This document shows positions 5,598 to 55,019 of a DNA stretch of 64,000 nt, in pieces (the stretch's first letter is position 1; each line of letters opens with the position of its first letter). The notes beneath the pieces were generated by a model. That model searched no databases, was not told the DNA's origin, and was given only the letters and a program-made list of their open reading frames with translations. The position numbers and the translations under genes were made by a program. Origin of the DNA: a virus. The stretch covers positions 32,001 through 96,000 of the IMG/VR virus record IMGVR_UViG_3300047200_000500; one strand, 5' to 3'.

Positions 5598-7751
5598 TTA
5601 TAAGCCACCATGGCAATTAGAGCAAGCTGATACTATATATCTAGCTACAGTTAAATCTCCAAAATCTGTTGCATTACCAGTTGATGCTATTGTGACATAA
5701 TCGATGACATTTTTTGCTGTACCTCCTTGATTTCCCCCGCCAAATACTCCTCTTAGTGAACTAGAACATGCAGAACCCCATCCTTTATCAGTTGTTAAAT
5801 CTCCAAATGTTGTAGCATTACCAGTTGAAGCTATTGTTATATAGTCTATAAAATTAGCACTTTCTATGCCACCACCAAATAATCCTCTTGTTGAATTTGA
5901 GCAACCAGCTGGAGTACGTCTTGAAATCGCTAAATTTCCAAAATCTGTAGCATCTCCAATTGAAGATATAGTAACATAATCAATTGTATCAGTTGGTCCA
6001 GTTCCACCACCAAATACCCCACGTGTTGTACTAGAAGAACTGCCTAATGACCCTCTGGCAACAGTTAAATCGCCAAAATCTGTAGCATTACCAGTTGAAG
6101 AAATTGTAATGTAATCTATGACATTACTAGCACTGCCACCCCCAAATAGCCCTCTTGTAGAACTAGAGCAACCTGCAAAACCATCTCTTGCAACTGTCAA
6201 ATCTCCAAAATCAGTTGAATTGCCACTAGTTAATATTGTTACATAGTCAATAATATTTATTGGTGCAAATGAATCATCTTGACCACCACCGAATACCCCT
6301 CTGGTTGAACTTGAACATGATGCTGTGCCATACCTTGAAACTCCTAAATCACCGAAGTCTGTAGCATTACCAGTAAAAGCTATTGAAATGTAGTCAATGA
6401 TATTAGTGATAACAGATAATGCAGTATTATAACCACCTCCAAATATTCCTCTTTGCGAATCGCCAGATGATGAAGATTCAGACGATAAACTTCGTGAAGA
6501 TGTACTAGAAGATGAATTAGATGAAGGTGAGGTAGGTGTTGAGGCAGTTGACTTAGAGGATGAACTTGATGAATTAGATGAAGGTGAAGTAGGTGTTGAA
6601 GCAGTTGACTTAGAAGATGAACTTGATGAATTAGAAGTGGGAGAGGTGGGAGAAGTAGGTGTTGAAGCAGTTGACTTAGAAGATGAACTTGATGAATTAG
6701 AAGTGGGAGAGGTGGGAGAAGTAGGTGTTGATAAAGAAGATGATTCAGATGAAGGCGAGGTAGGAGAAGTAGGCAATGAAAGAGTTGATAAAGAAGATGA
6801 GCTTGATGAATTAGAGGTGGGAGAAGTTGGATATGAAGGAGTTGATAAACTTAATGATTCAGATGAAGGTGAGGTAGGAGAAGTAGGCAATGAAAGAGTT
6901 GATAAAGAAGATGAACTTGATGAATCAGAAGTTGGATATGAAGGAGTTGATAAACTCAATGATTCAGATGAAGGCGAGGTAGGAGAAGTAGGCAATGAAA
7001 GAGTTGATAAAGAAGATGAGCTTGATGAATTAGAGGTGGGAGAAGTTGGATATGAAGGAGTTGATAAAGAACTTGATGAGTTAGATGAAGTAGTTGATAA
7101 ACTTGATGATTCAGATGAAGGCGAGGTAGGAGAAGTTGGAGATGAAGGAGTTAATAAAGAGAGTGATGATAGTGATGAAGATAATGAATTATTGTAAGAC
7201 TTACTGGAAATTGATAGAGAAGAATCAGATTCTGATTTACTTGATGGAAAAGATTTTGAGGAAGACGAATTTGAATCATTTGATGAAGATGAAGAATAAT
7301 TTATCTCTGTTGGACCGCTAGATCCAGTTGTTGTTTTTTCAAAATGGACGAATAATGATGTTATATCTCCATAATCTTTTTGATAAATTAATAATTTGTT
7401 GTTTTTATAAAATTTACTTTCTTGTATTGATTTAATGTAGTTTACTATATCATCTAAATTGTTAATATCAATTTTATTATTTATAAACAAATAAATGCCA
7501 TATCTTGGTTTTAATAATTTACTTGTTTTTATTAAAGAGTCTTTAACCAATCTATAAACAGTGTATTCATCTGAATTTATTGATAATAATGTTATCCCTG
7601 TTAACTTTATTGATAATTTTTTATATTCATTGTTACACACTAATTCATAGTGATTATTGTTATAACTATATAAATCATCTATTTTTATTACTAATAATAA
7701 CTTGTTTAATCCTATTTCAGACGGAGAGGTTGGTTGGCCGAGGTTTGTCAC
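5598..7751 (-). CDS. Ser/Thr/Pro-rich mucin-like stalk plus six-repeat Kelch-like beta-propeller (start codon uncertain)
   Basis: About 280 aa of S/T/P repeats, then 6 copies of IDY(I/V)TIxSTGNATDFGDL...SSTRG(V/L)FGGG, ending SNCHGGL. Confidence 0.8.
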   Translation of the reverse strand: MTNLGQPTSPSEIGLNKLLLVIKIDDLYSYNNNHYELVCNNEYKKLSIKLTGITLLSINSDEYTVYRLVKDSLIKTSKLLKPRYGIYLFINNKIDINNLDDIVNYIKSIQESKFYKNNKLLIYQKDYGDITSLFVHFEKTTTGSSGPTEINYSSSSSNDSNSSSSKSFPSSKSESDSSLSISSKSYNNSLSSSLSSLSLLTPSSPTSPTSPSSESSSLSTTSSNSSSSLSTPSYPTSPTSNSSSSSSLSTLSLPTSPTSPSSESLSLSTPSYPTSDSSSSSSLSTLSLPTSPTSPSSESLSLSTPSYPTSPTSNSSSSSSLSTLSLPTSPTSPSSESSSLSTPTSPTSPTSNSSSSSSKSTASTPTSPTSPTSNSSSSSSKSTASTPTSPSSNSSSSSSKSTASTPTSPSSNSSSSTSSRSLSSESSSSGDSQRGIFGGGYNTALSVITNIIDYISIAFTGNATDFGDLGVSRYGTASCSSSTRGVFGGGQDDSFAPINIIDYVTILTSGNSTDFGDLTVARDGFAGCSSSTRGLFGGGSASNVIDYITISSTGNATDFGDLTVARGSLGSSSSTTRGVFGGGTGPTDTIDYVTISSIGDATDFGNLAISRRTPAGCSNSTRGLFGGGIESANFIDYITIASTGNATTFGDLTTDKGWGSACSSSLRGVFGGGNQGGTAKNVIDYVTIASTGNATDFGDLTVARYIVSACSNCHGGL
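6466..7300. repeat. degenerate nested tandem repeats encoding the Ser/Thr/Pro stalk
   Basis: Recurring units such as gatgaacttgatgaattaga, gaagtaggtgttgaagcagttgacttagaa and gattcagatgaaggcgaggtaggagaagtaggcaatgaaagagttgataaagaagatga. Confidence 0.9.
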
Positions 7752-9759: not shown

Positions 9760-9790
9760 TTGGATAGATCGATAGTTCAAATCTAAGTAA

Positions 9791-10522
9791 ATGACAACCA
9801 ATAATACTAATATTATTGATATTCCAAAACCAAGATTTGGCATAAACCAGATAGTTTATATCAGGGAGAGTGCTCTTAATGGTTATTTGGAACCTCAAAG
9901 AATAGTACTGGCATATTTTGATCCTGACATAGGTAAGTATTGGTATTCTTTTAAATTTAAAAAATCTCCGCCAGTTACTCAAACAGTTGGCGATATTATT
10001 GATCTAAAAACTAAAAACCAAATCCAAATATTGGAAGATGATTTATGTAAATATGAGGAAGCACTTACTTTAAAGAGCAATTTTTTAACTGCGGAATTAA
10101 AAAAGACATCAGACCAATTACATGGTATAACTGGTGGACCAGAAATTGATGTTTTTGGTAATAATCATAATATTACAGATCATGACCTAACGCCAAGTCC
10201 AGATGACTTTACAGATTTTGGTGAACAAGTAGTTGATGATGATCTTGCCCATGGGTTAATTAGACCGCTTGAGATAAGAAATAATGGAAATTTTGATCTT
10301 CTTTTATTAGGTAATCCATTAGTTAAAATTGTTGGAGATGATGATTTCTCAGTAATTTCTCAACCAGTTGGTACAATTTCAGCAGGCACCACTTCTGTTT
10401 TTAGAATAGCATTCAAACCATTAATTATTGGTAGGAGAGTAGCAACAGTTCTTATAGCGTCCAATGATAGTAAAGACAGTATGTTTACTTTTGTTATTCA
10501 AGGGCAGGGTATTTCTCCATAG
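9791..10522 (+). CDS. protein with C-terminal Ig-like (choice-of-anchor D / ASH-type) domain
   Basis: GPEIDVFGN...TPSPDDFTDFG...IRNNGNFDLLL...F.P...G.R.ATV.IASND...FTFVIQGQG. Confidence 0.7.
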   Translation: MTTNNTNIIDIPKPRFGINQIVYIRESALNGYLEPQRIVLAYFDPDIGKYWYSFKFKKSPPVTQTVGDIIDLKTKNQIQILEDDLCKYEEALTLKSNFLTAELKKTSDQLHGITGGPEIDVFGNNHNITDHDLTPSPDDFTDFGEQVVDDDLAHGLIRPLEIRNNGNFDLLLLGNPLVKIVGDDDFSVISQPVGTISAGTTSVFRIAFKPLIIGRRVATVLIASNDSKDSMFTFVIQGQGISP

Positions 10523-10536
10523 TATTTAAATATTCT

Positions 10537-11841
10537 ATGTCAGAGTTTAGCAAGTTTGAAGAAGAAAATATAATCCTATTAGCTTTAGAAAGTCCTGAAT
10601 TTTTTCATAGAATAGCTTCATTCATGAAGGCTGAATATTTTGTATCTGAAGAAGCACAATATTTGATGAAGTTATATTGTGAATATTATGAAAAATATGA
10701 TGAAGTTCCAACTAGAGAAATGGTTAAGAATATGGTTTATAAAGAATTGACTGTTGATGATCCAATATCAAAACCAATCATTGAAATAATTGACAGGGAA
10801 TTAGATCCAAGAAATGCTCCATTTATTAAACAACATATAATTAAATGGGCCAAACAAAAGCAAATTTCATTGCTTTATGATGATACAGTAATGGAAAGAG
10901 TTAAAGCTGGTGATTTTGAATCAATAGAACAAATAGTTGATGATGCGGCTAAAATCAGTGACACTATTATTAGACCGTTTAATTTTTTCAAAGATGTGGA
11001 TCAATTATTTGAAATTGAAGATAGAGATTATTTTACAACTGGGTTTCCAAGAATTGATAAAGAGATACATGATAAGGGGCCATGTAGGAGAGAGGTGATT
11101 TGTTTTGTTGCACCAACTGGTGTAGGTAAAAGTTTTACAATGGCCAATGCTGCAATAGCTAATGTAATGGCTGGAAGAAATGTGCTTCATGTTTCACTTG
11201 AAAATGACGAAAAAGTAACTGGAAATAGGTATCTTGGAGCGTTCACTAATTCACCAATAAGAACAAGAGTTGAAAATAAAAATGATATTAAAGAAAAAGT
11301 TAGAAAGATTAGAACATCAACTAATTCAGACTTGTATATTCTGTTTTTTCCAACAGATTCTATTACTGTTGATACAATTGAATTATCTATGAAGGAGTTA
11401 CGTAAACAATATAATTTTGTTCCTGATGTTTTGTGTGTTGATTATCTTGAATGTTTATTATCAAAGGTTTCATCTAAAAACAAAGATGATTATGGAAGAC
11501 AAAAATCAGTATCAAGTGAATTCAGAGCATTAGTTGCTAAAACCAATACTTTGGGAATAACCGCTAGCCAATCTAATAGAAGTTCGGTTAGTGGAGAAGG
11601 TGGCCCAATTAATTTAGATAAGTTGGCAGAATCGTTTGGAAAGTCAATGCCGATGGATGCGGTGATAAGTTTGAACCAAACAACTGAAGAATATACAGGA
11701 GCTAATGCTGGGCAACAATCTCATATTGGACGTATAAGATTATTTATGGCTAAAAATAGAAATGGTAGAAAGGGATTCATAGTTAATACTAGTATTAACT
11801 ATGCAACAATGAAAATGATGGAAGATTCAACATCTTCATGA
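10537..11841 (+). CDS. replicative DNA helicase (T4 gp41/DnaB-like)
   Basis: TTGFPRID, APTGVGKS (Walker A), HVSLEN, CVDYLE, TASQSNR, LAESFGK..PMD, AKNRNG. Confidence 0.92.
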   Translation: MSEFSKFEEENIILLALESPEFFHRIASFMKAEYFVSEEAQYLMKLYCEYYEKYDEVPTREMVKNMVYKELTVDDPISKPIIEIIDRELDPRNAPFIKQHIIKWAKQKQISLLYDDTVMERVKAGDFESIEQIVDDAAKISDTIIRPFNFFKDVDQLFEIEDRDYFTTGFPRIDKEIHDKGPCRREVICFVAPTGVGKSFTMANAAIANVMAGRNVLHVSLENDEKVTGNRYLGAFTNSPIRTRVENKNDIKEKVRKIRTSTNSDLYILFFPTDSITVDTIELSMKELRKQYNFVPDVLCVDYLECLLSKVSSKNKDDYGRQKSVSSEFRALVAKTNTLGITASQSNRSSVSGEGGPINLDKLAESFGKSMPMDAVISLNQTTEEYTGANAGQQSHIGRIRLFMAKNRNGRKGFIVNTSINYATMKMMEDSTSS

Positions 11842-17580: not shown

Positions 17581-17601
17581 TAATTGAATTAGTGGTTTCA
17601 A

Positions 17602-17637
17602 TTAAACCCCCCTGGATTAATGTCCAGGGGGGTTTAA
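17602..17637 (+). terminator. intrinsic terminator hairpin after SSB
   Basis: 15-bp perfect stem ttaaacccccctgga / tccaggggggtttaa, 6-nt loop. Confidence 0.85.
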
Positions 17638-17653
17638 CTTGTATTTTAGAAAA

Positions 17654-31423: not shown

Positions 31424-33145
31424 ATGGCCGTTACTACTGATACTATAAATGTTGCAATAGTATTGCCAGATTCCCCAGAGGAAGTTGGTGTAGTTTTACC
31501 ATCGTCTAGTTTAAGACGTATTGATTTTTCTGCACTAGAATTTGAAACCGCTAGAAGAATGGCGATTGAATATGTAAAAACTTACTTCAGTGCTGACTTT
31601 AATGATTTTGTTCTCAGCAATGGTACAATAATGTTTGTTGAACTTGTTTCCGCTATGACTGGAATATTATCAGAACGTTCTGATATAGTTGCTGATGAAG
31701 CTTTTTTACCGACTGCCCAATCAAGAACTGCCGTTTCTCAGCATTTGGAATTAATTGGCCAAACATTAACAGTTGCTTCTCCTGCTGTAGCTGACATAGA
31801 ATGTACAATTGGCACTCCTTCATCTTTTGATATAGCTATCCCACCTGGCTTGATATTTTCTTTAACTGGACCAGATGGTAGCCCGTTAACTTATGAATTA
31901 TTTAGATCACCAGGAGATTATAGTAGTGATATTGTAATTCCACGTGGTAAAAGAGGGATAGTTGCATTTGCTATCGAAGGACAATTTGGTTCAGATGTTA
32001 CAATTACTTCTGACGGTACAGCGAATCAATATGTCGATATATTAAAAAACAATGTTTTAGATGATCCAATCATTGTTCACATTGAAACTGGGTCAAGTTC
32101 TACAGAATGGACTAGAATTGATTTCTTAGAAAAAGCTGATGCTAATTCTGAAGTTTTTGAAGTGACACATCTTGATGATCGTACAAGAGTCATGTTTGGC
32201 GATAACAGTAATGGTAAGATACCAATTGATGGTCAATTAATAAGAATTAGTTATAGAATAGGTGGTGGAATAAGAGGGAGAATAGGTGGCAATACAATTA
32301 ATGAGAGCAGGACTATAAGTGGTAGTCAATTTGCAGCTACTACTGTCTCATTTAACAATTCTTCTCCATCTCGTGGTGGATATGATGATGAAAACTTAGA
32401 TGATGCGAAAAAACGCGCTCCAAGAGAATTTGCTACCCATAATAACATAGCGACTTCTGATGATTACGTATTTGTTTCATCTACATTTAAACACCCTGTA
32501 TATGGTGCAGTTTCTAAATCTGTCGCAGTTGTCAGAACTGGTATCGAATATGGCAATCCGGCAGATGGAGACACTAATTTAGATTATGTCGTTCAACAAA
32601 TACGTGCTGCTCCCACAGTTGAAGAAGCTAAGCAATATCTATTAGCAAATTACGTTAATAAAAATGTTGTTGACATGTTTTTATTACAAGAAGGTGACAA
32701 TTTACCAATAATTCCAAGTATTGGACTTAAGACAGCGCTTAGTAATTATATTTCAACTCTTAATGTGTTTACAGATGAACTTAGAATTAATGATGGGTCA
32801 CTCTTACCTGTTAATTTGGAATTAACTGTTGTATTAACAAGAAATGCTGATGCGGCAACAGTCAAAAGTCAGGTATTATTTGCTATAAATAATGTGTTTG
32901 ATTTAACTAATAGAAATATGGGCCAAGAATTTAACAGAAGTGATCTAATATATGGAATAAAAAATGTTGATGGTGTTAAATCAGTTGACATGTTTAATCC
33001 TACTGATGATTACCCGCCACTTAGAAGAATTGTAACTAAAGATGAAAGGGCAGCTAATATTCAAGGAGTTGGCGTTAACGAATTAATAGTACTTGGTTCA
33101 CAAAATATCCAGTTTTATCTTGAACAAGGTAATATTAACATATAA
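31424..33145 (+). CDS. baseplate wedge subunit (gp6 / baseplate J-like)
   Basis: DFSALEFE, DFNDF, EAFLPTAQSR, MFGDNSNGKIP, YRIGGG, GG.DDE.LD..K.RAP..F......T..DY. Confidence 0.9.
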   Translation: MAVTTDTINVAIVLPDSPEEVGVVLPSSSLRRIDFSALEFETARRMAIEYVKTYFSADFNDFVLSNGTIMFVELVSAMTGILSERSDIVADEAFLPTAQSRTAVSQHLELIGQTLTVASPAVADIECTIGTPSSFDIAIPPGLIFSLTGPDGSPLTYELFRSPGDYSSDIVIPRGKRGIVAFAIEGQFGSDVTITSDGTANQYVDILKNNVLDDPIIVHIETGSSSTEWTRIDFLEKADANSEVFEVTHLDDRTRVMFGDNSNGKIPIDGQLIRISYRIGGGIRGRIGGNTINESRTISGSQFAATTVSFNNSSPSRGGYDDENLDDAKKRAPREFATHNNIATSDDYVFVSSTFKHPVYGAVSKSVAVVRTGIEYGNPADGDTNLDYVVQQIRAAPTVEEAKQYLLANYVNKNVVDMFLLQEGDNLPIIPSIGLKTALSNYISTLNVFTDELRINDGSLLPVNLELTVVLTRNADAATVKSQVLFAINNVFDLTNRNMGQEFNRSDLIYGIKNVDGVKSVDMFNPTDDYPPLRRIVTKDERAANIQGVGVNELIVLGSQNIQFYLEQGNINI

Positions 33146-46014: not shown

Positions 46015-46053
46015 CAATATTTAATTAGGTGTTAACAATATTTAATTAGGTGT
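46012..46053 (+). repeat. perfect 21-bp tandem duplication (taacaatatttaattaggtgt x2)
   Basis: 46012-46032 = 46033-46053, beginning at the tube stop codon. Confidence 0.95.
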
Positions 46054-46055
46054 TT

Positions 46056-46089
46056 CAATTGAGCCAGCCTTAACGGGCTGGCTCAATTG
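46056..46089 (+). terminator. intrinsic terminator after the tail tube gene
   Basis: 14-bp stem caattgagccagcc / ggctggctcaattg followed by tttgt. Confidence 0.88.
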
Positions 46090-46130
46090 TTTGTATTCAT
46101 CCATAGAGTAATTATGACAAGGAATTTAAA

Positions 46131-48905: not shown

Positions 48906-50840
48906 ATGGAACTCATTGATCGTCTCAAAATAATACTTGAAGCACCAGGAGATAATGAAGATATTGATGATGTTATTGATTCAGAGCCAGAAGTTGATGA
49001 AGGCGATACTGATGTCAAAGTTGATGATAATGCCGAGGCTGCAGCTGATGAGGAAAAATCTGAAGTTGAACAATTAATTGATAAAGAAAAAGGCGTAATT
49101 GATTGGACTGGCATACCTAATCCAATGCCGGGTAAAACTCTTTCTGACTTAAAGGGATCTAAGGTTAAAGGCATACCTGCTGTTAAATTGCCATTGGAAA
49201 ATGGTTGGACCAAAGAAGAAGTTATATCAGCACTCAAACCAACTATAATTTATTTTGCTAAGAAATATTCAACTCCAACATTTAATGTTGAGGAAGCTAT
49301 TGCTGAACAGATGACCGGAGTACTTGAAGCTCTTAAAAATGATAAAGGAATTGCACCATTTACTTCACATGTATACCGTTATCTTTCAACATCCGCTCAA
49401 AGAGGTGCTGGTAAGGCTTCTAATATTTCTGGTGTCCCACAAACTAAAGGCGGTAAGTATGATCACTTAGCCGCTTCTAGAGCAGCGGTTAGTGCTGATG
49501 CTCCAATGCCTGGAGATGCCGAAGAAACTTATTCTAGTCAGATCTCTAGCCATTATGATCAAGCTGGTGAATTGGCTAGTAAACAGAGAACAATGACTAA
49601 ATTGATTTCCCATTTATTAAATGCCCCTTCTGTTGGTCTTTCAGAAAAAGAGAAACTTGTTTTAATGGCAACTTATGGTATAGGACAAGATGGTAAAATT
49701 GGCGAACCGAAGACTAGTAAAGAAATAGCTGATGCTTTAGGCGGAGTTTCTGTTGTAAGAATTAGTCAAATTAGAACTGGTGCACTCGCTAAAATTCAAG
49801 AATATGTCCAAGCTCGCAAGTTTAAAGATGAAGGCCAAGCAGCACAATCTCTTGGCATTGAAGAATCTAAACTTATTGCTATTGCTGAAGCTTTTGCAAG
49901 AATTATAAAAGAGACGATTCAACTTGAATATGAAATGTATTCCGAAAGACAAATAATTGAAATGAAGACAGATTATCGTGGAAGAAGCGAATCTGTTAAA
50001 ATTCATGTTAATTCTGATACATATGAAGTTGAAAATGCATTAAATGAAGAGAATGAAAGTATACTTGGACATGTAACTGATGAAATATTAAATGAAGCAG
50101 TTGATCTGGCAAGAGCTAAAACTTCAGGTCAATATTTTGCCGAAATGGTCAACAATGTTATAAGTATGCAGGCACAACCAGTTCTTGCCACTATAAATAA
50201 TACTATTTCTAAAGGTGAAATTCCATTCATTTATGTTAATAAGCCAGGAGTAGAAAGGGCAATGGGTGCCGCTGAGAAAGCAGTATTTGGCAAAAGATTT
50301 AATGGGAAATATTATGGTGGTGGGGCATCAAGGATAAATGCTTGGTATTATCAAAATGATGCTGCTGAACAAGTCAATAAAATGCATGAAATAATGGCAA
50401 ATAAAGGATTTGCAGAGTTCAAGGCCGATAGTTCTGGTAAGACAATGAGTGAAGATATCAACCAGGAAACTTTAAAGCCTGGATCATATTCAACTGAAGT
50501 AAGAGTGCCATATTTGGATGGTAGTGGTAGTACCACATATAATGTTGTTTTTGATATATATGGTCAATTTTTAGAAGAACTTGATATAAAAGCAATAGAT
50601 GATGTTGATACTGGTGAAATGAATATCGATCTTGTTACTGTTAATTTAGATGAAATAGAAAAGAAAGTAAATGAGAAAATAAAGTCTCGTGAAATTAGAT
50701 CTATGTCATATGATAAAGATAGACTTAAGCAACTTCAAGATATGGTTGCAAACGATGAAGAACACCAAGCAAAAATTCATAAATTCGAAAATCAATTTGC
50801 TGATTTACAACCACCAGATAAAGAAGATGGGAAAAGCTGA
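48906..50840 (+). CDS. protein containing a sigma70-like core (regions 2 and 4) with long N- and C-terminal extensions
   Basis: AGGAGA RBS before ATG 48906; region 2-like LKPTIIYFAKKY...VEEAIAE...GVLEAL...FTSHVYRY; region 4 LSEKEKLVL..TYGI...TSKEIADALG.VS.VRISQIRTGALAKI. Confidence 0.75.
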   Translation: MELIDRLKIILEAPGDNEDIDDVIDSEPEVDEGDTDVKVDDNAEAAADEEKSEVEQLIDKEKGVIDWTGIPNPMPGKTLSDLKGSKVKGIPAVKLPLENGWTKEEVISALKPTIIYFAKKYSTPTFNVEEAIAEQMTGVLEALKNDKGIAPFTSHVYRYLSTSAQRGAGKASNISGVPQTKGGKYDHLAASRAAVSADAPMPGDAEETYSSQISSHYDQAGELASKQRTMTKLISHLLNAPSVGLSEKEKLVLMATYGIGQDGKIGEPKTSKEIADALGGVSVVRISQIRTGALAKIQEYVQARKFKDEGQAAQSLGIEESKLIAIAEAFARIIKETIQLEYEMYSERQIIEMKTDYRGRSESVKIHVNSDTYEVENALNEENESILGHVTDEILNEAVDLARAKTSGQYFAEMVNNVISMQAQPVLATINNTISKGEIPFIYVNKPGVERAMGAAEKAVFGKRFNGKYYGGGASRINAWYYQNDAAEQVNKMHEIMANKGFAEFKADSSGKTMSEDINQETLKPGSYSTEVRVPYLDGSGSTTYNVVFDIYGQFLEELDIKAIDDVDTGEMNIDLVTVNLDEIEKKVNEKIKSREIRSMSYDKDRLKQLQDMVANDEEHQAKIHKFENQFADLQPPDKEDGKS

Positions 50841-52943: not shown

Positions 52944-55019
52944 ATGACGAATTCGGTGAAAAAAGCTAAGGAAATCATTCCTACGCTTTCAGAAAAATCT
53001 TTACCATCTCTAGCGTTAGAACCTAAGATTAAGCCTAAGAACCATTATTTTGATAATGATTTGGTTCAAGAAATTTTAAAAAGATATGTTGCTCGTGGGT
53101 GCGTTGACATAGAATTACGTGATGAAATAATGCACCATGCTGAAGAATTGATAAGACAAGTAATCAGAGCGCATAATTTTGAACATATTTTTCCAAATAG
53201 AGACAGTTCATCAGCATTAGAATTATTCCAAGTGGCCTATTGTGTATCGTTAGATACCATGTTATTCACTGACAATGGGATAATGAAAATAAATGATATA
53301 ATTAATAACAGTTTTAATAGACAAATACTTTGTAATGGATTAATTGGAGAAATTGATATCATGGTAAATGGAATTAATGGATTATCAAAAGCTAATAAAT
53401 ATTGCTTAAGAAATAATATTAAAACAAAAAAGATTAAAATTAAATATGATTATGAATTGGAATGTACTAATGATCATCCAATTTTAGTTTTAAAACCTGA
53501 TGGGCATAAATGGATAAATGCTGGTGATCTTAAGAAAAATGATTATGTTGGTTTACAATATAATCAAAATATTTGGATTAATAATAATAAAATAGATTTT
53601 AAACCATTAACTAAAGGTGGTACCACTTACATGTGGAATCCACCTTCAGAATGGACTGAAGAATTAGCATATATAGTAGGATTAGTAGTCTCAGAAGGAT
53701 CAGTTGAGGATTATAGAATTGTAATTTATAATGGAGAAGTAAATGAAATATTACAAAATAATAATTGCGGGCTAATTATTAAATATGATGGTAATCTTAC
53801 TAATGCGATAGGATGTATAAGGTTTGCAGAATTTATAAAATGGTTAGGGATTAGCAATAGTGCATTAACAAAAAAAATTCCAGAGCAAATTTTGAAATGT
53901 TCTAAGAATATTATATCATCATTTTTGTCAGGAATGTTTGATGGTGACGGTCATTCTAATAAAAGCAATGGAAGAGTTGGATATACATCATCTTCAAAAA
54001 TTTTAATTGAACAATTAAGAATGTTGATGTTAAACTATGGAATAGTAACCCAAAAAAGTGCAGATAATAGGAAATTCAGTTTGTTTAGAAATAAAAAATG
54101 TGACAAGCATACATCATGGCAAGTATTATTTCCAACAATTGATTCAATGATATTTTATAATGAAATAGGATTTAAAATAAAACGAAAGCAAAATAATAAA
54201 GTGAAATTGTCAGATATTCCATTTAGATATTTATATGGTCACTATAAACAACATACTGGAAATATTCTTAAATATATTAAAAAATTAGATCGTAAATGTT
54301 TAAAACCAAGAGATATAATTACACCTAAAATATTATCAAGATTGTTATTGGTTAAATCAGCTATTAATACTGAATCTTATAAATATTTATCTGAAAGATT
54401 ATCTGAATGTTCTGGTAATAATAAGATAATATGGTTGCCAGTCAAGGAAATAAATGACAGCATATCAGATGTCATTGATATTACAGTTCCACTTGAAAAC
54501 AATTTTGTAGCCAATGGTATAATAACCCATAATTGCCAGATCGAGAAAGTTTTATATAAATATGATCCACAACCAGGATCACCAAAATTATTCAATTTAT
54601 GGAGCCAGGTAAGCAAGACGCGAATTTTGGCATACTTGAAAAAAGAGAAAAGAGACAAAAAGAATGTCGTGAGTTATAAAGATTTCTTAAACAGAAAACA
54701 GAAAATCAAATTAAAAAATTCAACAGATATTGATTTGTGGTTAAAAGAAGCAAGGGAGATGTTAGAATATAATGAAGATTTTTTAAAGATAGTAGATGCA
54801 ATAGAAAAAATTTGGTATGATGATGAAAAATCTCATGATGGACTAATATCAAAAATTGAAAAGACTAGTGGAAAGAACAGGAATATAATAAGCCATTTTT
54901 TCAAAACAATAAGGATAAGAAGAGATGAGTTTACGGTTAATTTACTTGAAGTTAAAGACCCTAAAGATCCTGATGCTAGTGATGTAGAAGATTTCTTTTA
55001 TATTGACCATGATCAATAA
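52944..55019 (+). CDS. late-transcription sigma factor (gp55-like) interrupted by an intein
   Basis: Exteins: KNHYFDN...ELFQVAY|CQIEKVLYKYDP..GS.KLFN.WSQV.K.RIL.YLKKEKR, resembling the gp55 pattern (HY.NN...FDP...F..FTQI...I.KEK); 260 aa after splicing. Confidence 0.75.
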   Translation: MTNSVKKAKEIIPTLSEKSLPSLALEPKIKPKNHYFDNDLVQEILKRYVARGCVDIELRDEIMHHAEELIRQVIRAHNFEHIFPNRDSSSALELFQVAYCVSLDTMLFTDNGIMKINDIINNSFNRQILCNGLIGEIDIMVNGINGLSKANKYCLRNNIKTKKIKIKYDYELECTNDHPILVLKPDGHKWINAGDLKKNDYVGLQYNQNIWINNNKIDFKPLTKGGTTYMWNPPSEWTEELAYIVGLVVSEGSVEDYRIVIYNGEVNEILQNNNCGLIIKYDGNLTNAIGCIRFAEFIKWLGISNSALTKKIPEQILKCSKNIISSFLSGMFDGDGHSNKSNGRVGYTSSSKILIEQLRMLMLNYGIVTQKSADNRKFSLFRNKKCDKHTSWQVLFPTIDSMIFYNEIGFKIKRKQNNKVKLSDIPFRYLYGHYKQHTGNILKYIKKLDRKCLKPRDIITPKILSRLLLVKSAINTESYKYLSERLSECSGNNKIIWLPVKEINDSISDVIDITVPLENNFVANGIITHNCQIEKVLYKYDPQPGSPKLFNLWSQVSKTRILAYLKKEKRDKKNVVSYKDFLNRKQKIKLKNSTDIDLWLKEAREMLEYNEDFLKIVDAIEKIWYDDEKSHDGLISKIEKTSGKNRNIISHFFKTIRIRRDEFTVNLLEVKDPKDPDASDVEDFFYIDHDQ
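53241..54533 (+). mobile_element. intein with LAGLIDADG homing endonuclease (431 aa)
   Basis: N-terminal CVSLDT, block B LECTNDHPIL, YIVGLVVSEGS and FLSGMFDGDGH, block F/G VIDITVP..NNFVANGIITHN followed by +1 Cys. Confidence 0.95.

Follow-up and report, generated by a model that had tools for sequence, protein, structure and literature searches.

The 64,000-nucleotide (nt) stretch of viral DNA considered here, positions 32,001 to 96,000 of the IMG/VR record IMGVR_UViG_3300047200_000500 and referred to below as the window, comes from a large, uncultured T4-like phage and contains a gene (52944-55019) in which an intein interrupts a protein resembling the sigma factors of phages (Table 1). The N-extein begins with a KPKNHYFDN motif and comprises the equivalents of sigma regions 1.2-2.1 and the first half of a region-2.2-like helix, with helices at residues 32-44, 50-70 and 82-102 in the AlphaFold2 (AF2) model. 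The C-extein supplies the second half of that helix, a long 2.3/2.4-like helix and a C-terminal domain, and the two exteins add up to 260 amino acids (aa; 99 + 161). A protein identical over all 691 aa to the window precursor (P0127) was recovered from an independent assembly, and the precursor is therefore not an assembly artefact. The guanine-plus-cytosine (GC) content of the intein is 25.6%, as opposed to 29-34% in the exteins. When scanned against Pfam, the window protein matched Intein_splicing with 57.8 bits (cut-off 35.8) over profile positions 5-155 of 155, and LAGLIDADG_3 with 49.6 bits (cut-off 22.5). The initial annotation, made from the nucleotide sequence alone, had described a complete 431-aa LAGLIDADG intein with Cys1, a terminal His-Asn and Cys+1, and the catalytic residues together with scores above the Pfam cut-offs bear this out; judged by these features, the element is a complete class 1 intein with an intact LAGLIDADG endonuclease, for which both splicing and DNA cleavage are predicted. 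The same annotation held that the terminase, helicases, RecA and polymerase encoded here were free of inteins. This also stands, as no further Intein_splicing match was obtained across the 169.6-kb contig, which makes the window intein the only one detected there.

Table 1. Coordinates of the intein-containing gene, its parts and a neighbouring sigma-type gene (positions are those of the window)
Feature	Position	Strand	Basis or remark
Whole precursor gene (sigma-like extein plus intein)	52944..55019	+	691 aa plus stop; open reading frame list
N-extein, 99 aa	52944..53240	+	Alignment to intein-free homologues; AF2 model; hhalign to gp55
Intein, class 1, 431 aa, precursor aa 100-530	53241..54533	+	Pfam matches; absent from 12 homologues
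Hint N-lobe, blocks A and B	53241..53576 (boundary approximate)	+	Bounded by alignment with family mini-inteins
Cys1	53241-53243	+	Intein residue 1
Block B TNDH (TxxH), intein residues 76-79	53466-53477	+	
LAGLIDADG homing-endonuclease domain	53577..54419 (boundaries approximate)	+	Region absent from mini-inteins P0026_B, P0046_B and P0034_B
LAGLIDADG motif 1, IVGLVVSEG	53673-53699	+	Catalytic acid retained
LAGLIDADG motif 2, LSGMFDGDG	53925-53951	+	Catalytic acid retained
Hint C-lobe, blocks F and G	54420..54533	+	
His-Asn, intein residues 430-431	54528-54533	+	
C-extein, 161 aa	54534..55016	+	Alignment to intein-free homologues; AF2 model
Cys+1 (precursor Cys531)	54534-54536	+	
Empty site B (W553^S554)	54600..54605	+	Filled in 32/100 informative family sequences
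C-terminal four-helix helix-turn-helix (HTH)-like domain	54711..54947	+	Compatible with sigma region 4
Acidic-aromatic C-terminal tail, DFFYIDHDQ	54990..55016	+	Comparison of C-termini
Second, more canonical sigma-70-type gene, two genes upstream	48906..50840	+	Sigma70_r4, E = 8.4e-7

The point of insertion, ELFQVAY^CQIEK (a caret marks an intein junction throughout), can be placed exactly, as 12 homologues without an intein (233-266 aa; identity up to 81%) cross it without a gap in the protein alignment and read ELFQVA[YW]-x-QIEK continuously. The closest of these empty relatives are 74-81% identical. At the level of DNA, the N-extein sequence of the window matches nt 70-279 of the empty allele L006 and the C-extein sequence nt 280-765, with no gap between the two, and the junction at about nt 6279/6280 of the L006 locus is a candidate substrate of the endonuclease. 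The initial annotation had proposed looking for such intein-free alleles and for other inteins at the same position, and both exist; the latter are taken up below. A tblastn search with an intein-free allele gave no match among 50,697 phage records. It was also observed that within 12 nt on each side of the intein (53229-53240 and 54534-54545) all six synonymous differences between the window and L006 are toward codons ending in G or C (GTG GCC ... TGC CAG ATC GAG in the window versus GTT GCT ... TGT CAA ATA GAA in L006), in a genome with 33% GC; this short tract may have been co-converted from an intein donor.

What the intein has invaded was examined with the natural intein-free allele P0002, 81% identical to the window protein, standing in for the spliced extein. 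Its AF2 model has a mean predicted local distance difference test score of 82, with a core above 90. In a Foldseek search every listed match was a sigma factor and the best match in the PDB was T4 gp55, the E-values being 0.05 or higher, and isolated sigma region-2 domains superpose on the model with a template modelling score of about 0.75 and a root-mean-square deviation of 2.3-2.7 Å. An unusually long helix H4 sets gp55 apart from other sigma region-2 domains (PMC7892883), and a 40-residue H4-like helix of the model (residues 112-151) corresponds to it. Sequence profiles give a weaker signal: when 41 intein-free homologues were scanned singly at E <= 1, Sigma70_r2 was matched in 14 (best E = 8e-6), and other families recurred in no more than 3 of them. 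The individual scores are low for the family as they are for gp55 (15.5 bits for P0007 and 13.1 bits, E = 0.087, for T4 gp55 itself, with a cut-off of 24). An hhalign comparison of the family profile with 22 gp55 sequences gave E = 0.0034 over 105 collinear columns, and in this alignment the N-terminal KPKNHYFDN pairs with KPKYNYVNN of T4. The model thus gives the 260-aa host protein a sigma region-2 fold, and the protein is gp55-like in its fold and predicted working, including the binding of RNA polymerase, while lying outside the gp55 family by sequence. Of the initial description of a gp55-like late sigma factor, the sigma fold and the structural kinship to gp55 are therefore upheld, membership of the gp55 family at the level of sequence is not, and the word "late" holds by analogy. 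The helical domain at the C-terminus fits sigma region 4, yet it cannot be told from generic HTH folds. The acidic-aromatic tail that follows is possibly the counterpart, on comparison of the C-termini, of the sliding-clamp-binding motif described at the end of gp55 (...LDFLYE... in T4; PMC7892883).

The correspondence with gp55 also indicates what the intein interrupts. In the hhalign alignment the Y^C junction coincides with A73^D74 of T4 gp55, within helix H3, in which E70, D74 and E77 contact the beta' clamp helices of RNA polymerase (PMC7892883), and the family-invariant Ile-Glu next to the junction pairs with I76-E77. The positions of the gp55 promoter pocket, N13, F86, H95 and T99, are occupied by N32, Y103, F113 and S117, which are invariant in the 12 close homologues. 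The earlier placement of the intein in a region-2-like helix was thus correct, and the helix is by alignment the one with which gp55 binds the clamp helices (hhalign; PMC7892883). With 431 aa inserted in the middle of it, the unspliced precursor should not be able to bind polymerase, and activity of the factor would depend on splicing. Such dependence is true of most inteins that reside in essential proteins.

The window protein is not an isolated case. A search of 1.84 billion representative proteins with the family profile retrieved 113 members, many of which are 600-1200 aa long and match the profile in two or three separate stretches. The interruptions fall at two sites. Site A, that of the window, has the junctions ...QVA[WY]^C...HN^CQ[IV]E..., whereas site B, 23 residues (69 bp) downstream, has ...FN[LM]W^C...HN^SQ[IV].... 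Among informative sequences site A is filled in 14/93 and site B in 32/100, and at least one intein is found in 41/124 sequences. Both sites are occupied in three full-length proteins (P0033, P0057 and P0068), and traces of both were seen in two fragments. Site B is equivalent to I98^T99 of gp55 in the alignment and lies within the pocket (H95, Y97, T99) that reads the flipped bases of the -10-like element. The family inteins range from 132 to 463 aa and include mini-inteins of 132-191 aa that have no nuclease, as well as intermediates of 309-412 aa, most of which lack the second LAGLIDADG motif. The residue following the intein differs between the sites. At site B the native Ser would act as the +1 nucleophile. 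At site A, empty alleles usually have Val, Met, Thr or Ile at +1, with Cys in 9 of about 76, and occupied alleles always have Cys; Cys+1 is imposed by the intein and not conserved in the host. The statement in the initial annotation that sigma factors are atypical intein hosts agrees with the literature, but not with these numbers, nor with the two further sites in canonical gp55 proteins that are described below. As a separate observation, one subfamily (P0018, P0021, P0022, P0040, P0049, P0051, P0065 and P0098; loci L009 and L012-L030, about positions 6001-6880) carries an insert of 45-70 aa with two CxxC pairs (...PHCxxC[FY]...CxxC...) and the look of a zinc ribbon, located in the loop that separates sites A and B and connects the clamp-helix-binding helix with the promoter-reading helix.

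Full-length inteins from both sites can be aligned end to end and are typically 35-50% identical, the decayed ones being as low as 24%, whereas among the 50,697 phage records no intein exceeds 25% identity to them, the nearest ones residing in terminase, helicase, RecA and polymerase genes and none in a sigma factor. A maximum-likelihood tree of 29 full-length inteins resolves two clades with support of 100/100, and neither is confined to one site: in the first, 10 inteins are from site A and 4 from site B, and in the second, 1 is from site A and 14 are from site B. At least three changes of site are needed on this tree, inteins of either site formed a single clade in 0/200 bootstrap trees, and the approximately unbiased test rejected a single clade of A inteins (delta lnL 82.6, p = 1e-4). 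Recombination that exchanged only the endonuclease was considered as a source of the mixed labels and was ruled out: trees of the Hint and the endonuclease partitions share the same split and the same five exceptions, and therefore whole inteins moved and not the nuclease domain alone. From these trees the A and B inteins are one lineage that has repeatedly switched sites, on at least three occasions. Targets A and B have in common a local motif, W^(C/S)Q(I/V), and in 14 intein-free loci the 18-nt windows at A and B share a mean of 8.9 nt, compared with 4.7 for other in-frame positions, and in four of the 14 no other position of the gene matches A as well as site B does; because the loci are related, these figures do not amount to a formal probability. 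The resemblance is limited to Trp-type alleles, which belong to more distant relatives, and in the window itself A and B agree at 14/42 positions, which is about chance, with the clade of the window at background. Ectopic cleavage at a look-alike site is a plausible, if unproven, mechanism for the change of site.

A number of known systems help to place this element. T4 gp55 (PDB 7D7C chain F; PMC7892883) resembles the host protein in the collinear profile alignment, the N-terminal Y-x-x-N, the Ile-Glu of H3, the long H4-like helix and the acidic-aromatic tail; it differs in being about 75 aa shorter, without the four-helix C-terminal domain, in having no intein, and in belonging to the gp55 profile families phrog_234 and phrog_12791, which are silent for the host. 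Canonical relatives of gp55 (P0250-P0286, 387-651 aa; P0277 is present in NCBI on a 108-kb contig) do contain inteins, which measure about 230-420 aa and terminate in Gly-Asn, at two sites, NF.NY^C...GN^[ST]Y (T4 Y63^T64) and DGIEN^C...GN^C (about T4 78^79). The latter shares helix H3 with the equivalent of site A, at a distance of about five residues, but these inteins differ from that of the window in type, in site and in the sequence family of their host. Other class 1 LAGLIDADG inteins of phages, such as those in a Herelleviridae helicase and in mycobacteriophage TerL (PMC5050341), have the same architecture of a Hint domain with a nested nuclease and are likewise found at functional motifs of essential proteins and sporadically among relatives; as noted above, none of those in the phage records is close in sequence or located in a sigma factor. 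The nearest functional precedent is the intein in TFB (TFIIB) of Methanocaldococcus jannaschii (PMC2602779), also a component of transcription initiation, although TFB is a cellular protein, not a phage-encoded one, and shares neither fold nor lineage with sigma factors of the bacterial type. Inteins are also reported from subunits of RNA polymerase (PMC1635734), likewise within the machinery of transcription initiation. Haloarchaeal MCM (PMC10643990) offers a parallel, being a gene with several neighbouring intein sites of which one or two can be filled; in the present family the inteins of the two sites are one lineage with exchange between sites.

Taken as a whole, the observations are probably best explained by a phage sigma-type initiation factor, closest to gp55, that has been invaded by a selfish class 1 LAGLIDADG intein. 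The gene would encode a transcription initiation factor with a gp55-nearest region-2 fold and a small helical C-terminal domain, and the intein would have entered halfway along the helix whose gp55 counterpart contacts the beta' clamp helices, leaving a precursor that should be inactive until spliced. Once the precursor has been translated, splicing most likely needs no trigger and ligates Tyr99 to Cys531 to yield the 260-aa factor, while the endonuclease would cut intein-free alleles of co-infecting relatives so that repair copies the intein into them. The element would thus persist in the usual way, by invasion followed by decay of the endonuclease and loss, and the mini-inteins, the decayed endonucleases and the empty close relatives indeed suggest an ordinary selfish homing cycle. 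We infer splicing competence, nuclease activity, binding to RNA polymerase and late timing, the last of these from the analogy with gp55 and from gene position. The order helicase, sigma-like gene, terminase and portal is kept in 28/28 related viral loci.

Several results weigh against this explanation. The window exteins match no Pfam or PHROG family, and Sigma70_r2 was matched neither by them nor by P0002. A hidden Markov model search of PDB sequences with the family profile returned no sigma factor, only chance matches with E >= 0.18; the hhalign probability against the gp55 profile was just 9.5%; and the PHROG profiles phrog_234 and phrog_12791 were silent in the exteins, the 12 homologues and the contig, where a search with T4 gp55 itself also found nothing. 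The T4 late-promoter motif TATAAATA occurs 19 times, 13.7 +/- 3.6 occurrences being expected, and is not enriched, and a gp45 homologue was not found in the contig with T4 gp45 as query. The negatives for gp55 and gp45 in the contig show little, because it represents only about 46% of the genome. An alternative is that the host has a sigma region-2-like fold and is nevertheless not the late sigma factor, but could be an early or middle specificity factor or a modulator that binds RNA polymerase. The late role could then fall to the sigma-70-type gene found two genes further upstream, or to one from the half of the genome that is not sequenced. That upstream gene, which shows in addition to its region-4 match a weak Sigma70_r2 at 49224-49385 and has a long C-terminal extension, means that two sigma-like proteins are encoded within 6 kb, and together with the incomplete genome, the unenriched promoter motif and the failure of gp55 family membership by sequence it lends this alternative some weight. 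We nonetheless consider it unlikely, given that gp55 is the best structural match with the long H4 included, that the counterparts of its promoter pocket are conserved, that the gene always adjoins the packaging and structural module, and that the tail resembles the clamp-binding motif.

Two other views concern the intein and not its host. That it is a dead remnant which no longer splices and has inactivated the gene in this phage is hardly credible: Cys1, TxxH, His-Asn, Cys+1 and both LAGLIDADG acids are intact, the frame is open over 691 codons, the identical allele was recovered twice, and the gene is kept in each of the 28 related loci, as would be expected of one that is needed. The initial annotation had gone further in the opposite direction, viewing splicing as a possible environmental checkpoint on late gene expression. 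In such a scheme Cys1 and Cys+1, or other intein cysteines, would form a reversible disulfide or respond to stress and so gate the supply of mature sigma factor and late expression. Splicing is logically required for activity, as the intein interrupts the clamp-helix-binding helix (PMC7892883), both nucleophiles are cysteines, and redox-sensitive or extein-dependent splicing has precedents in DnaBi1 of Mycobacterium smegmatis (PMC6195587) and in RadA of Pyrococcus horikoshii (PMC4513877). If true, the idea would matter, as the switch of the phage to transcription of its structural genes would be gated post-translationally by the state of the infected cell, a natural case of an intein-controlled sigma factor. 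The comparative data do not bear it out, and we regard it as quite improbable. Relatives with 74-81% identity manage without the intein, and the same lineage works with Ser+1 when it occupies site B and has moved from one site to the other, so that Cys+1 is a requirement of the site and not a conserved sensor. Cys is rare at +1 in empty alleles, the decay of endonucleases and the presence of mini-inteins suit a parasitic element, and the sequence showed no feature that would be specific to a sensor.

Some further features of the surrounding sequence were recorded. Five copies of the hexamer CTAAGT (at 9783, 45474, 56205, 58153 and 62702, + strand) each precede the start of a plus-strand gene by 4-25 nt, the genes including the portal gene (start 58170) and the one after the tail sheath (start 45499); these copies are 5/12 of its plus-strand occurrences, in 4.7% of the sequence. 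It is not called a promoter because it is too near the start codons. Between tail genes, at 46015-46130, a tandem duplication of CAATATTTAATTAGGTGTT is followed by a perfect GC-rich hairpin (CAATTGAGCCAGCC...GGCTGGCTCAATTG), and another strong hairpin (CCCCCCTGGA...TCCAGGGGGG) is present at 17581-17638; the two probably act as intrinsic terminators. In some related phages, extra DNA of about 1.3-1.4 kb is present between conserved genes of the terminase area (L008, 7906-9290 and 11209-12548; L010 and L011, between about 8900 and 10300-10550), which may represent free-standing homing-endonuclease genes or other mobile genes.

Inteins are known mainly from proteins of replication, repair, nucleotide metabolism and packaging, and a survey of bacterial and archaeal inteins makes no mention of sigma factors and reports few inteins in the transcription machinery (PMC4760082), while a survey of mycobacteriophage inteins lists none in a sigma factor (PMC5050341). 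A search of the literature found no paper on a natural sigma-factor intein. The sigma factor is thus a new class of host for a known kind of element, and what is added beyond this is the pattern of one lineage at two sites. Phage factors of the sigma region-2/gp55 type emerge as recurrent hosts of inteins, with four sites in two families, each mapped one at a functional surface. With two similar sites of one gene occupied by a single lineage, the family provides a tractable natural case of a homing endonuclease and its intein gaining a new target. There is also a consequence for annotation, in that the "hypothetical proteins" of 600-1200 aa in this family can be read as sigma factors with one or two inteins.

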